NCBI GenBank assembly: GCA_035221665.1
Contig: CM069161.1
Span: 5,022,001 to 5,086,000 of the forward strand
Origin: Okamejei kenojei
Lineage: Eukaryota
DNA length: 64,000 bases
Direction: 5' to 3'
This document shows, in pieces, positions 8,996 to 57,742 of this stretch. A program made the position numbers and the translations under genes. Positions within the stretch are counted from its first letter, which is position 1. Each line of letters opens with the position of its first letter. The notes beneath the pieces were generated by a model. The model was not told where the DNA came from, made no database searches, and saw nothing but the letters and a program-made list of their open reading frames with translations.

Positions 8996-10556
8996 GTTCA
9001 AGATTTCATGTCCACAAACCTCTGTTCACTCACAATAATGCTGTTTCCAATAAATTGTTAAAGCAATAGCTGGATTAGAAATAATTGTACATTTATCATC
9101 ACAGTTGAGGTCAGCTTCATGCAGGAGAGAGATTGTATCTCAGACCACTGCTCCATATGATTCAGTTCCATTCTAGTGATTGCAGCACTTGTTTGAATCT
9201 TTAAAAGCTTCGATTGTTGCCCAGTAATTTGCAGCTTATAAGCACAAGGCATTAAAACATGTGTATTGCAATAATTTCACATAAGTGGGTCAATTACTGA
9301 TGTATTAAACTCTTTCCAAATAATGTATGTACTTGCAATTCCACTGGCAATGCTGTGTTATGACAGACTTACACATGTGTAATAAACTATGTGTGATCAT
9401 GTTCACATTATTCCAAAAATAAATATACAAAGCTTGAATAATTGGGGATATTTACTACGTTAAATTTTGCTCAGATATTTAAATATTAATTACACTGATA
9501 AATACAAGCTCTGCCGACAGTGCTCATAGCTTGAGAATTATTTCTGTTTATATTGTACCTATCATGTGTTATTTAAAATGCCATCCTAAAAAAAATACAG
9601 AGCCCCTTTGTTGTCTGGCTATCAAAAAACCTTGTACCATCAATGACTACTGGTACCCCTTTCTCATTCAGAGATTCACTCCATGATATGGGTTAGGGAG
9701 TTTTAAACTGAGGATCCTTTACATCTAAGCCTTTGGAGCTTATTGGTTCCCATATAGTGGAAATGTACATTGTTTGGTACAACAAGAATGAGATAGGGTT
9801 AAACAGATTAACAGTTACCCTTTCTGAACCACTGGGTCTTACTTTGTCAGTGACATGTCCTGTCCATGACAACGCTCAGACCACATCATAAAATGGTAAA
9901 TATCATAATATTGCAAATAGCCAATATTGCAAACTAAAACTAAGTTGAATTCATTTAAAATATAAATAATTATACGGACGCAAATTTGTGCAATATAGTT
10001 CTTGGCTTGCATCGTGCTTAAACTGTGAGAAAATTAATCCTTCAGTTCAACAAGCGGAGAGGTGATGTGTAATTTGGATATGCACTGCAACTTCTTCCGT
10101 GAAAAAGTTACAGAGTGTGCCCGTTGGAAAGTCAACCAGGAGAATATTATAACAGCAAAGTTTAGAGGGACCAAAGACATGCATTTGAATGGGCAGGAGT
10201 CGAATAGAAGCAAAAATGATGGAAGAATACATGGTCAGAAACACAACTTAATTTGATGGCAAGAACGCAAACAGGTTCACATCAAGAAAAGGGAAGGGAG
10301 AAAGATGGGAATTAATAATTTCCTGCTAAAGCACACTATCTGATTTGCACAAATTAATTCATTCAAAGTTGAATTATATTTATTGAGCGGACCTGCAAAC
10401 AATACAATATTCTGGACTGAAATAGGTCCGCAGCAGAATGAGATTTTAAAACTGTAGTATGATGACCAAACACTTATGTCCCAAATGCTGTTTAGGTATC
10501 CTTCATCTCCAGAACTGGCAGATAAAATCAAAAATTGTTCATGAAAGAAAAATACT

Positions 10557-10694
10557 CATCTTCTTGTGTATGGCGTGCGCAGCCGAAAGTTGTGGGACAA
10601 CTTGTTCTATTTGATCTTATTTGATTGTGCACGCCAGGTTGATTGCATTCATTGAAACAGGGCGGAGCACGTGAAGGTTGCAATCTCCCACCCC
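10557..10694 (-). mobile_element. Short non-autonomous retroposon with HDV-like ribozyme head and (AAG)n tail, copy A
   Basis: 11-bp TSD AGAAAAATACT (10546-10556 and 10695-10705). Minus strand starts GGGGTGGGAGATTGCAACCTTCACGTG and ends GCCATACACAAGAAGATG. Homologous to 41862-41988. Confidence 0.88.
10641..10694 (-). ncRNA. HDV/CPEB3-like self-cleaving ribozyme fold (this copy mutated)
   Basis: P1 GGGGTGG/CCGCCCT with G1.U wobble; J1/2 GA; P2 GATTGCA/TGCAATC; P3 ACC/GCT (GGT in copy B); L3 TTCACGT; P1.1 G; minimal P4 TTTCAA; J4/2 TGAA (T at the catalytic C position, consistent with CpG decay). Confidence 0.8.
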
Positions 10695-12561
10695 AGAAAA
10701 ATACTGAGAACGTAAGATGTCTGAAATTAAATCTCAGTAGAGAGTTAATGTTTCAGATTAATGAGGACACCTGAGTGAGATTTTTTAATGGTGGACTATG
10801 TACTGGCGAAGTGTGATAATATTGTTTTTGTATAGAGCTTCATAACAGCAGGGACACTAAATATAACAGTGATAATGCAGCCTAGCGGAACACCATATTC
10901 AGCGATATTGCACAGATACAGTAAATTCAATTTTTATTTTGGTCTTGAAATGTGGGTACTTTGTTAACCACTTGCTTAAACTCACCAAGATGTTCTACTC
11001 TTGGTCTAAAGTTTAAAAAAAAAATCCCAGTCACTCAATTTATAAATAGTGGCAGTCAACCAGAAATTAAATATTCTAATTTCTGTATGAAAGCAATTAT
11101 TAATCTAGAATCTGTTGTAGTCTGAATGATAAAGTGATCTGAGATGGAAAATATTACAATTTAACCTATCAATCTTTAAAAAATGAAATCTACATAAATC
11201 CTAAATTATTAATGAAGTTCATAATTGCTTGGTACACTACATTAGAATTGTTATATCCCTGCCCTAAATTAGTGTCCTAATATAAATTAATACAATTATT
11301 TTTGTGTGTTTTGGTGCTGAAGAATCAGTCCGTCTAGAATCTGCAAAAGTCATGTCTCAAATCATCATCTTGGCCCTCTGTACTGTCCCTTGTGTAAGTT
11401 TGATTTTTAACATTTATTAAATATCAGTTTGTGTCGACTAACAGCCGGGGACATTGTCTCACTATTAAAATGTTAAAATTTCTGTATTACATTCGATGAA
11501 AAATGGGTTTGATCTAGTGGGAAATGGCTATTTATGCTTCTGAAATGGAATTGGCCACCCTGACATTTTCTGAGCCCTGTAGGCAAATGTAACCTTCAGG
11601 AAAGTATGACCAGCAATGCTCAGTCTGTGAAAACCATTGCACTAACAACAGTTTTTCATCTGTGAAAACAATCATAATGGGGAATGAAATGGATGAGTTG
11701 AAATGACAATTCATGTGTCCCCAGAATAAATTAGGGTAATATGCTATCACGGTAGAGCAATACATTGCAATTTCAAAAACTAATAAATAATGTATCTTGA
11801 CTTACAATTCATTATCATATATTGATCTTCATTCGTCATTATGCAACTCTCATCTTTCAGATAAGAGCAACTTAATTAAACTTTTGACTACCAACTCTTT
11901 TGAAATGTTATTTCTGCCTGTAGATCTTAGTTACATTGCTTGTAGATAAGTCAATTCTACAGTTTTCAGTGTTTACTGCATTCCATTGTTACATAAAATG
12001 AGAATAGTTTTCCCATCACTGCATGCAGCAAGTTAAGCAGTATAACATAGGATTTGGAAATAAAAATATTGCATACCCTGCTGCTACCAAAGATACTTGC
12101 CTCATAGATATTTTGTTAATGAAGCTGTTTAACTTCCTTTTTACCAAAGATTGTCAAAGTTACAAACACATCAAGGTGGAACATGTTTATTTGTGAGATA
12201 GTAGAACATGTACTTTGAACTCCTCTTTTGAAATTTGGGTTTGATTGAAGCGCAAGGCATCGTGCGATGGTAAAAATATTATATTTGTGACGAAGGATGA
12301 ATTTCAACCCCTTTATTCTCGCTTTCTAACATAATATCTATTCCTAATACACTTTTAGTTCCACCTTTCTGAAAGGATAAATAAGAAGAAATGTTTTGCT
12401 TGGGCGGGAGGCTCAGGAACCAAAGGACATGGATTTATGGTAATGGGTTAAAACAAAATAGAAAAGAAGGCAAGGAGAATTTATATTTATGCAGAGAATT
12501 ACTATAGTCTGGAACATGAAAGGGTGGCAGAAGCAAATTCAATAAAGCACACAAAAGAGAA

Positions 12562-31639: not shown

Positions 31640-32060
31640 AAAGATACATTGTGGGAACAGGCCCTTTGGCCACAGAGTCCACGTCGTCCATCAGTTTACT
31701 CTATACCTGTTTACTCTAGCTCTATGTTATCACATTTTTACACCCACTCCCTACCCACTAGGGGCAATGTACAGAGGCCAATTAACGTACAAACTGAAGG
31801 TAAACACAAAACGCTGGAGTAACTCAGAGGGTCAGACAGCATCTATGGAGAAAAAGAATAGGGGACGTTTCAGGTCGAGTCCCGAAATGCCACCTGTTCC
31901 TTTTCTCCAGAGATGTTGTCTGACCCGCTGAGTTACTCCAGCTTTTTGTGTCTATCTTCAGTTTGAACCAGCTTCTGCATTTCCTTCCTACCCTTAGCCT
32001 ACAATCTGCATGTCTTTAGGATGTGGGAGGAAATTGGAGGAAACTCACAGGTACCAACTG
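31640..32060 (-). mobile_element. HE1 V-SINE fragment interrupted by fold-back Penelope-pLTR element (~31797-31992)
   Basis: Reverse SINE tail ggaacaggccctttggcc. The insert is an inverted repeat of ctggagtaactcag.gggtcagacagcatct, with a decayed TSD ttaacgtacaaact / ttagcctacaatct. Confidence 0.8.
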
Positions 32061-33677: not shown

Positions 33678-33859
33678 GTACACAAAAGGCTGGAGAAACT
33701 CAGCGGGTGCAGCAGCATCTAAGGAGCGAAGGAGATAGGCAACGTTTCGGGCCGAAACGTTGCCTATCTCCTTCGCTCCTTAGATGCTGCTGCACCCGCT
33801 GAGTTTCTCCAGCCTTTTGTGTACCCTCGATTTTCCAGCATCTGCAGTTCCTTCTTTAA
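33678..33859. mobile_element. Fold-back Penelope-pLTR element with 15-bp TSD
   Basis: TSD CAATCAACATTCAGT (33663-33677, 33860-33874). Palindrome gtacacaaaaggctgg...aacgtttcgg-g-ccgaaacgtt...ccagccttttgtgtac. Confidence 0.92.
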
Positions 33860-41830: not shown

Positions 41831-41861
41831 CAACAACAACAATAGGTTTAGGCTGTGGGCC

Positions 41862-41912
41862 GGGGTGGGAGATTGCGACTTTCGTGTGGTCCGCCCTCTT
41901 TCAACCAATGCA
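41862..41912 (+). ncRNA. HDV/CPEB3-like ribozyme fold (degenerate copy)
   Basis: P1 GGGGTGG/CCGCCCT; P2 GATTGCG/TGCA (truncated by a ~12-bp deletion); P3 ACT/GGT; L3 TTCGTGT; C retained at the catalytic position (41905). Confidence 0.65.
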
Positions 41913-41988
41913 TGCACAATCTAATAAGATCAATTAGAACAAGCTGTCCTACAACCTTAGGCTGTGCACGCCAAACGCAAGAAGAAGA
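41862..41988 (+). mobile_element. Short non-autonomous retroposon with HDV-like ribozyme head and (AAG)n tail, copy B
   Basis: 12-bp TSD AGGCTGTGGGCC (41850-41861, 41989-42000). Starts GGGGTGGGAGATTGCG, ends GCCAAACGCAAGAAGAAGA. Homologous to 10557-10694. Confidence 0.88.
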
Positions 41989-44214
41989 AGGCTGTGGGCC
42001 GAGTATCGAAAATGTGTCTAGAATTTAACTTTCGTGACCCATGTCTGGGAACTACTTGAAAATTTGCACAGATTTAGATAAAGTATAATTCAGAAGGAAG
42101 TCATAAGTCATCAGTGCCAAAAGTTGCACATTAATTAATTAAACATTAGAAAATGAGATAGAAAAAGTAAGAGCCATCTAGTGTTCAATGCTCATATTAC
42201 TCCATGGGGAGCCTAATTCCATGCTGTTGTCTATTTAAACCATATATTAACATACCATATTAATATACCATATATATATATAACTTGTGAATATGACAAA
42301 TTATACAAATTATAAAAATAATATAATGAATATAATTGTGAGTGTGTATTTTGAATGAGACTGCCACAGAGGTCCGGCTCCTGAACCAGCCTAATTAATG
42401 GGTGAGGGCAGGTCCTGTGTGTTCCCCCGTTTACTGAACCCCACTGACTGCCAGTGTGCTGAGTGGGGGTCACGGCAGTAGGGGGACTGGGGCAATGGCA
42501 GGCTGGGGGGAAACTAAGGCATCTTCCACTGCGAGGAAAAAAACCTAACCCTAACTTGCCCCCCCCCCTTCCAGAGGCTGGGGCTGGAGCCGCTTTGGGA
42601 CCGACTGCGGGTTCCGTAAGTGTGGCCGCTCAGTGTGTCCACCTCGGCCAGCATTCCCTTCTGGATCATCATGGTGATGATGGTGGGGAGCAGCACTACC
42701 CTGCACGCCGTCCGCAATTCAATTGTAAAACAAAATGATCAGCAAGGTTAGCATTACCTTTATTCCTTCGAAGCTTTGCTATTGTTTTGATGTAATTAGG
42801 AGGCATCCTAGATCCCAATGTGCTCGCTGCCTAGCTACCATGAAACAAAGCGCATGATTGGTCAATTGGCGTCCGACGCAATTTCAAATGTGCATTGATT
42901 GGACAATTACTACTCGGAAAATTTGAGGTTTTTCTCATATTTTAAAAATATGTGCAGGTTTTGGTCTTGACGAGTTTCAGGTATGATTTCTATAATATTT
43001 TTACACAATATGTTAAAAATTCAGGTAGTTACGTGATTTGGGTCAGGAACTTAAACGAAAAAGCACTTCGGCCCACAGCCTCGGGAGGTTCCTAAGATAT
43101 ACAACGGGCAATTCATTTAATTCTAGCATCCGAGGTTCCAAAGTAATTAGATCAGCATCAAAGAACCAGTGCTGTTAACTTGTCAATCACAAATGGTGTA
43201 GGAATACGTGACGCCACCTTCTACAAGGACTCCTGCACCACACACATTCACATACCCTGCTGTGTAATGACTTTGTAATCTGCAACAGTCCTAACATACG
43301 AGTCTGAATGTCATTGCAAAGTTTCTCTGGTAACTTTGCACATATTAAGATGGAACACGTGCAGAGAGAGGGGAGTCCTGACCTGAAATGTCACCCATGC
43401 TTTTTTTCCAGAGATGCTACCTGACCCGCTGAGTTGCTCCAGCACTTTGTGTCTATCTTCGAGATTAGTTCAACCTGGTATCGTCTTCAGCACGGACATT
43501 GTAGGCTGTAGGGTCTGGTCCTGTGCTGTACTGTGTGCTATGTTCTATTAGTCTGTCATACGTACCTGGATGTCTGAGGCAGGAAATTAATTCTGTGCTG
43601 TGAGGACAAGCCATTTCCCTTTCCTTGTACACAGTTGTGAGTGCTCTACACATTTACGAGCGTTACAATTCCTGCACATTTGTTGGATCCTTCTGATTCA
43701 GAGATGGAAGTTCTACCATAGAGTCCGGGCTGATAATCTAGCCATATCATCACACAGATGATTAAACTGTTAACTTATTTTTCGTTATGTAGTTTGTAGT
43801 GGAGTAAACTGTTTACTGCCTGCAAGTGAAGTATATGAAGGAGAAATAATCACTTTAGTAATGGTGCCTGTGGACAGGGCTTTCATAAAGTGTAGAGAAT
43901 CGTAGCACTTGGATGGAGAGAGATGGAACTCTGTTCAATTCAAAATGCTAGCTTAAACCTACACTCTACATTATCCATAAAATGTATTGATGGCTTTGTT
44001 GAAAAAAGGCATGTTTTCTCTTTAATGAGAATGGTATTGCAACAACATAACGTTTCTGCTTGGGTAGATCAACTGGACACCAGACTGCTTCAGTTGCACT
44101 AGTCAACTATCATTTGCATTGTGTTTAATCCCAAGTTAAAAACGGCCATGAGTTACTTTTGATTTTAGATTAATTAGCAGTGACCAGAATGCCGTTGCGA
44201 GTCTGAGGGCACTA

Positions 44215-56711: not shown

Positions 56712-57742
56712 GTACAGGGAACTGCAGTCGCTGGTTTACAAAAAAAGACACAAAGTGCTGGAATAACTCAGTGGGTCAGCCAGCATCTCTGGAGAACAAG
56801 GATAGGTGATGTTTTGGGTCAGATTGATTGCGCTGGGGGCAGGTGGGGGAAAGCTAGAAGTGAGATGGGGATGGGACAAAGTTTGGCAAGTGATAGGTGG
56901 ACACAGGTGAGGGGACATTTTGATAGGCAGATGGGTGGACAAACCAGAGATTCAAAGATACGGATAGAAGAGGTGTGAAGTTAGAGGAAGGAATACAGGT
57001 GGGAGGGAACGGGAAAGGGGGAAGGAGAGAAATGGGTGTGAATCCAGGTGGGACACAGGGGAGAAGGGGGGGGGGAGGGGGTATTGTTTGTCGGTAAGTT
57101 ATCTCCGTTTGGAGAATTTGATGTTCATACTGTTAAAGAAGGAACTGCAGATGCTGGAGAATCGAGGGTACACAAAAAGCTGGAGAAACTCAGCGGGTGC
57201 AGCAGCATCTAAGGAGCGAAGGAGATGGGCGACGTTTCGGGTCGAGACCCTTTTTCAGACTGAAGAAGGGTCTCGACCCGAAACGTCGCCTATCTCCTTC
57301 GCTCCTTAGATGCTGCTGCACCCGCTGAGTTTCTCCAGCTTTTTGTGTACCCTTGATGTTCATAATGTTAGGTTCTAAGCTAGCCAAGAGGAATATGAGG
57401 TGCTGTTCCTCCAGTTTGTATTTGTCCTCACTCTGGCAAATGAGGAGGTCCAAGTCAGAAAGGTAAGCGTGGGAATGGAAAGGGGAGTTAAAATGGTTAG
57501 CAACCAAGAGACCCAGCAGATAAGTCCATTGTATGTGTAGGATGAACAAACAGCTAACACTGGCCTGTTTCCTTTATCATCGTTAGTTTTTTTGCATATA
57601 TTTCATTCATTGTTCTTTATCTCTCTACACCATTGTCTATATCTCTCGTTTCCCTTATCCCTAACTAGTCTCGACCCGAAACGTCACCCACTCCTTCTCT
57701 CCAGAGATGCTGCCTGCCCTGCTGAGTTACTCCAGCTTTTTG
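56712..57742. mobile_element. Composite Penelope remnant (minus GIY-YIG end + pLTR; plus pLTR 57545-57742) with nested fold-back element
   Basis: Minus ORF LLVANHFNSPFHSHAYLSDL...KYKLEEQHLIFLLASLEP, plus pLTR modules on both strands. Confidence 0.85.
57136..57352. mobile_element. Fold-back Penelope-pLTR element with ~18-bp TSD and two inverted hammerhead cores
   Basis: TSD TTGATGTTCATA(C/A)TGTTA (57118-57135, 57353-57370). Centre: gacgtttcgggtcgagaccctttttcag-a-ctgaagaagggtctcgacccgaaacgtc. Confidence 0.92.

Follow-up and report, generated by a model that had tools for sequence, protein, structure and literature searches.

The window, that is, the whole 64,000-nt stretch of Okamejei kenojei DNA which was analysed, possesses two copies of a short retroposon, here named family E. 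The features of both copies are given below, with element positions counted from the first base of the head, G1.

10557..10694, minus strand: whole element of family E, 138 bp, a bipartite non-autonomous LINE derivative
10695..10705, no strand: target-site duplication (TSD) adjoining G1, 11 bp
10546..10556, no strand: TSD adjoining the tail, 11 bp, identical to 10695..10705
10641..10694, minus strand: HDV/CPEB3-type head without P4, 54 nt, a predicted ribozyme with a predicted cut 5' of 10694
10688..10694, minus strand: 5' strand of P1, starting at G1; pairs with 10659-10665 (7/7, with a G1.U wobble)
10679..10685, minus strand: 5' strand of P2; pairs with 10641-10647 (7/7)
10666..10678, minus strand: P3 and L3; P3 is broken at 10667, and L3 is the Rfam CPEB3 consensus loop
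10652..10658, minus strand: G37 and a 6-nt linker in the place of P4; G37 is the putative P1.1 partner of C22 of L3, a pairing taken from CPEB3
10648..10651, minus strand: J4/2; the catalytic position 10651 is T (a CpG site)
10617..10640, minus strand: remainder of the 5' UTR of the parent LINE, shared to element position ~77
10557..10600, minus strand: last codons, stop, 3' UTR and (AAG)n tail of the parent LINE, 88-96% identical over ~45 nt
41862..41988, plus strand: second, more decayed copy, with a 12-bp duplication at 41850-41861 and 41989-42000

The first-pass annotation had placed a 138-bp minus-strand element between identical 11-bp TSDs, one of them abutting G1, and both repeats were found at the expected places (10546-10556 and 10695-10705). 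Its nested double-pseudoknot parse of 10557-10694 also holds, as P1 is paired in 7/7 positions with the G1.U wobble, J1/2 is 2 nt, P2 is paired in 7/7 and P3 in 2/3. The 7-nt L3 is identical to the consensus loop of the CPEB3 ribozyme in Rfam, as had been stated. In this copy P3 is broken by a C at position 28 and the catalytic position 44 is occupied by T. The copy at 41862-41988, which is 79% identical to the first, had been described as wild type at both defects. P3 and the catalytic C are indeed intact in it, but it carries defects of its own: a 12-nt deletion which damages P2', a C at position 37 instead of G37, and two changes in L3. Both copies are defective and are therefore predicted to be dead. 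The ORF list of the window showed no evident host exon. Long palindromic repeats elsewhere in the window (33693-33809, 31817-31937 and 57168-57349) gave spurious miRNA-family matches in Rfam.

The 54-nt head of family E and of its partner LINE contains all helices of the HDV type except P4, in the HDV order. Covariation was analyzed in a MAFFT alignment of 12 hand-picked heads, four from family E and two each from the sister families A-D. The pairs of P1, P2 and P3 were formed in 95.6% of the cells of this alignment. Two-sided changes were observed in 12 of the 17 pairs across the 12 heads of five families (P1 4/7, P2 6/7, P3 2/3), in agreement with the HDV/CPEB3-type fold that had been proposed for the family. 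Slid controls gave 0-3 two-sided pairs with 42-53% of cells paired, while 20 of 500 shuffles reached 12 pairs and 0 of 500 reached the observed score. Only five lineages stand behind the alignment, and hence the independent events are few. The covariation of P2 was not selected by the model, because P2 is absent from the structure line of Rfam RF00622. U20, U21, C22 and G37 are invariant in all 12 aligned heads, so neither P1.1 nor the G.U reverse wobble of L3 can give a covariation signal.

A strict descriptor of the fold was run on 3.84 Mb simulated from the window with a dinucleotide Markov model and gave 0 hits. It also gave 0 hits in the window itself, because both copies are broken. The same descriptor was matched by 23/30 loci chosen on positions 20-54 and by 13/30 loci selected for similarity to the window copy. 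The match of the head to the HDV order is not due to chance. Recognition by the Rfam HDV-like or CPEB3 models, suggested earlier as a check, failed for family E at E<=5, both in the window (19 weak matches, no ribozyme family) and in three intact copies (L077, L084 and L085); the family falls short of the 35-bit cut-off of RF00622. The pseudoknot-free fold of an intact head consists of P1 and P3, and its stability does not exceed that of shuffled sequences (z 0.92). In the body (10557-10640 in the window) the two ends are brought together by an 11-bp stem of the LINE-derived 5' UTR with the 3' UTR, along with an inner 7-bp hairpin, with z of -2.7 in the window copy and -3.88 in L085. A shorter body stem in the partner LINE would pair its two ends across 3 kb. 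The first 54 bases of family E likely fold into a P4-less HDV-type ribozyme.

To understand the extent of the family, the 2.76 Gb genome was searched. A DNA search with the element returned 2,464 candidates, 40 of which were scored. The exact 35-nt core from L3 to P2', including the catalytic C, has 1,533 genome matches (control 0), and the same core with four free or two-letter positions revealed at least 6,645 family E copies. Extrapolation from six matches in 530,732 nt of loci not chosen for the family, plus the two in the window, gives ~37,000 copies, a rough estimate whose density is taken from repeat-rich loci. A hand count of 100 copies listed of the 6,645 found C at the catalytic site in 99 and T in one, so the catalytic C is kept at the family level, as had been proposed. 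The base after it is T in 61, G in 32, A in 6 and C in 1 of the same copies. The subfamily with T at this place (L193, L175, L177) is more numerous and agrees with the partner LINE in this base, and the window copy belongs to the G subfamily. Median identity of the body to L085 was 94% among 29 family E copies.

The ends were analyzed in 30 copies (L075-L104) selected by positions 20-54 alone. Positions 1-4 were matched in 28, 28, 29 and 26 of them, and nothing was common upstream of G1 except a T at -1 in 18/30, which suggests a target-site preference. Duplications anchored at G1 were found in 21/30 copies compared to 1/30 when the anchor was moved by 60 nt; 12 of the 21 end exactly at G1 and 17/21 are 10-13 bp. 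The clustering of genomic 5' ends at G1, a prediction of the first-pass annotation, is thus observed. Contigs of four public runs (four organism codes) also reach G1 and then diverge, with 79, 35, 1 and 226 loose ends at that place and an agreement of 0.35-0.37 in the three deep runs; they cover the first 85 nt of the element and show presence only. One family E copy with a 13-bp duplication lies inside an older Vingi-type LINE (L018:1400-2300).

The genome search with RF00622 gave 42 matches, 30 of them over the 35-bit cut-off and the best at 66.8 bits (59 scored of 141,138 candidates). These matches are the heads of four other retroposon families, A-D (L135-L164, heads at ~1501-1590). Families A and C run into Vingi-type ORFs, and in family B one copy (L136) is connected with a Vingi 3' end. 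Family D represents a second P4-less short element of ~165 bp with an (AAG)n tail and duplications (L156-L159, L161, L163), and the 3' end of its own partner LINE was found at L205, L216, L225 and L232. It is rare, with four exact cores in the genome. All six copies start with four G after T, and from these sequences G1 seems to be missing or supplied by the host.

The partner LINE was recognized through an older variant of the element body which reads as the final codons of an ORF. The pattern built from this ORF-end variant had 45 genome matches (control 0). Among 30 loci from it, 29 are LINE 3' ends, in which a knuckle motif is followed by ...WMSTLDLQL-stop, and the remaining one is a deleted short copy. 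The 29 LINE 3' ends share element positions 95-140 at 86-96%. One 3'-end copy led to the 5' end, and the sequence that follows the head was then used as a query, with 34 matches. In 17 of the 20 fetched 5' ends, part or all of positions 1-77 precede the start of the endonuclease ORF. At L294 head, ORF pieces and tail are all present in order, and the LINE head at L293 is 52/54 identical to the intact short copy L085 with every helix paired. The partner is therefore a decayed single-ORF endonuclease/reverse-transcriptase LINE which has ~77 bases at the start and ~45 bases at the end in common with the element, and it follows that the element is an internally deleted LINE. By this comparison, the ribozyme fold of the element is inherited from the LINE 5' UTR. 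In 11/20 partner 5' ends (L289-L308; also L243, L246, L257, L269) the sequence directly adjoins inverted LINE sequence, a frequency biased by the selection of 5' ends. These inversions resemble the twin-priming inversions of L1.

All partner copies examined are decayed, and no intact partner ORF was found among them. Their closest intact relative is P0121, a protein of 1,019 aa with endonuclease and RT domains and no RNase H, whose length the partner copies span in pieces. The RT tree comprised 23 rows, and in it the partner grouped with seven relatives as sister (88/81) to a clade of the Anolis protein P0100 and the other Vingi-type LINE of this genome, and the two groups together were separated from three outgroup LINEs with 100/98 support. 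As none of the rows is a named Ingi or Vingi protein, the partner is filed as Ingi/Vingi group. P0121 has the Vingi architecture, a single ORF with APE endonuclease and RT and no RNase H (PMC13708176). Other searches for a partner were negative. A PF14529 search found no shared end in any of the 44 loci examined (of 150 matches), and a search with the Vingi-type protein found no family 3' end beyond a 16-17-nt tail likeness in 70 loci examined (of 150 matches). Three fragments of L165 matched no Pfam family. All 30 loci examined of the DUF6451-bearing LINEs, an RTE family, end in (AAG)n or are truncated, and in 0/30 is the 3' sequence that of the element; other LINEs here are labelled CR1, I/Nimb or RTE. 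An RTE-dependent element is not supported by the 0/30 count. Of the two partners proposed earlier, Ingi/Vingi and RTE, the data support the Ingi/Vingi group, with both ends shared.

The window element is quite probably a dead member of a non-coding family that arose by internal deletion from an Ingi/Vingi-group LINE, with its first 54 bases likely a P4-less HDV-type ribozyme predicted to cut before G1. In the proposed mechanism, a Pol II transcript would arise by read-through or from a promoter in the head, and self-cleavage before G1 would trim it to a defined 5' end; a promoterless element that cuts itself out of read-through transcripts, as the first-pass annotation proposed, would be one of these two routes. 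C44 may serve as the general acid by analogy with C57/C75, the general-acid cytosines of CPEB3/HDV-type ribozymes (PMC4836649, PMC9901934). The LINE protein would bind the shared 3' end and copy the RNA by target-primed reverse transcription; such mobilisation in trans by the partner is suggested by the shared ends and the tail. Nearly all copies are full length, presumably because the RNA is so short. The head would be the compact form within a lineage of ribozymes that Vingi-like LINEs carry.

An internal promoter, or full-length copying of any defined RNA, would produce a start at G1 as well, which counts against the ribozyme reading. The head might accordingly be read as a relic, in which the fold is inherited, the loss of P4 ended cutting and an internal promoter sets the G1 start. 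In the closest precedent, L1Tc/NARTc, Pr77 acts both as a ribozyme and as an internal promoter (PMC4035085), transcription of bipartite LINEs by Pol II with cis elements at the 5' end is expected by Kojima 2018 (PMC5786205), and cutting by the family E head is a prediction from sequence. A relic is nevertheless unlikely, since the three helices differ from those of the P4-bearing sister heads and are still paired, and the catalytic C is fixed across subfamilies while the neighbouring base varies. Family D, also without P4, has kept its core as well, and P4-less ribozymes are active in vitro (PMC10879173). A head that still cuts in intact copies is hence the preferred reading.

The heads of the sister families are closely similar to the CPEB3 ribozyme. 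By hand counts against the Rfam RF00622 consensus, L135 is identical at 54/67 and L136 at 57/67 positions, the latter at 44 of the first 46. The supplement of Kojima 2018 prints the crocodilian Vingi-2_Gav and SINE2-1_AMi, and the passages concerned name no ribozyme for them (PMC5786205). Vingi-2_Gav matches the consensus at 38/40 of positions 2-41 and at 14/14 of the 3' end, and SINE2-1_AMi is identical to it from G37 through the P4 stem and P2' save a 4-nt loop (both hand counts). P2 and P4 tolerate change in CPEB3-type ribozymes (PMC9901934, PMC8233481), so descent explains this likeness better than convergence. The mobile copies are many and diverse compared to one intronic copy, which points from element to gene. 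Intact CR1-type ORFs of 1,000 aa suggest that the present genome is not that of a mammal, because CR1 in human is ancient (PMC5753468). Given the sister Vingi heads and the near-copies at the crocodilian Vingi 5' end, co-option of a Vingi 5' end is the likely source of the mammalian CPEB3 ribozyme, a single copy having been kept in the CPEB3 intron. No such claim was met in the papers searched. Kojima 2018 gives ribozymes for six LINE clades, and Vingi is not among them (PMC5786205).

It is also unlikely that the likeness reflects convergence on the HDV fold, or that Vingi captured the ribozyme from the CPEB3 gene. It was the CPEB3 model that selected the Vingi-head matches (59 of 141,138 candidates were scored), and the comparison covered the Rfam consensus of the mammalian ribozyme, both of which leave room for these readings. 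Against them, the identity reaches into freely variable stems (L136, Vingi-2_Gav and SINE2-1_AMi, as counted above), and the Vingi heads form a varied, multi-copy set attached to LINE ORFs or 3' ends. All 42 listed RF00622 matches are more than 1 Mb away from any RRM_7 (CPEB-type) locus found, which argues weakly against capture as few candidates were scored. With somewhat less assurance than for the element itself, the wider picture favoured here is that a so far unrecognised lineage of HDV-type ribozymes heads Vingi-like LINEs at the 5' end and shrank at least twice in this genome to a 54-nt P4-less active form, that one such form spread to tens of thousands of copies, and that the CPEB3 ribozyme is an exapted 5' end of this lineage.

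The remaining possibility, a true Pol III SINE whose degenerate head of tRNA type, with A/B boxes, is only accidentally similar to a ribozyme, is very improbable: stretches that loosely match an A box (position 5, with 3 of 11 bases mismatched) and a B box (position 37, with 3-4 mismatches) and one weak ARAGORN tRNA call, made at a lowered threshold on the strand opposite to the head, are set against the same head being the 5' UTR of a protein-coding LINE, which largely refutes it, against equally good A/B box matches at other places in families A and D, and against the absence of chance descriptor hits in the simulations. A SINE proper was rejected as the class, as the head is a LINE 5' UTR and not of tRNA, 5S or 7SL type. 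The first-pass annotation was right that the element has no tRNA-like head, and its label of SINE-like retroposon is replaced, since the ends are shared with a protein-coding LINE. Both ends shared with one autonomous-type LINE, the lack of an ORF and the TSDs are those of a bipartite LINE; on its sequence the element is an internally deleted bipartite LINE, not a SINE proper.

A ribozyme-headed internally deleted LINE is an already known class. With respect to the searched literature, the new features are that a predicted HDV-type fold lacking P4 heads both a LINE of vertebrate type and at least 6,645 dispersed short copies, and that Vingi-like elements have predicted ribozymes. Cutting of pre-mRNA by intact sense-strand copies in introns would follow from such activity, and a strand bias is predicted. 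Vingi-like 5' UTRs are in use in gene-writing platforms (PMC13708176). Where the CPEB3 ribozyme came from can now be tested directly. Bendixsen et al. describe this ribozyme as not found outside mammals and without outgroups (PMC8233481); if the proposed origin is true, the Vingi heads supply both the outgroup and the origin which studies of CPEB3 call missing.

Among the known systems, the bipartite LINEs of RTE, Ingi, Vingi and R2, including the R2 SIDEs, are alike in having the 5' and 3' ends of the parent, no ORF and no small-RNA head (PMC5786205), and four short motifs of the element are absent from the supplement of that article. NARTc, RIME and the SIDERs of the L1Tc/ingi clade are likewise short and internally deleted with both ends of an Ingi-group LINE, and have an HDV-like fold in the first ~77 nt with the cut site at +1 (PMC4035085). 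Compared to these, as they are described there, family E lives in a vertebrate-type genome, is 138 bp with a 54-nt fold without P4 and a predicted activity, and has a partner without RNase H and tens of thousands of copies. The CPEB3 ribozyme (RF00622) shares with family E the helix and linker lengths 7/2/7/3/7, L3, the G1.U wobble and, as predicted for family E, a single C-G P1.1 plus U.U (PMC4836649, PMC8233481), whereas the stems of family E differ in sequence, P4 is lacking and Rfam gives no match. The ribozyme of CPEB3 is also single-copy, intronic and said to be absent outside mammals (PMC8233481). The minimal HDV-like and theta ribozymes resemble the family E head in lacking P4, in having the catalytic C first in J4/2 and in the G1 cut site, which is predicted for family E (PMC10879173). 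Nearly 99% of the minimal ribozymes come from phages, in a search which took in human, mouse and protist genomes (PMC10879173). In contrast to these, the fold of family E heads a LINE and its derivative.
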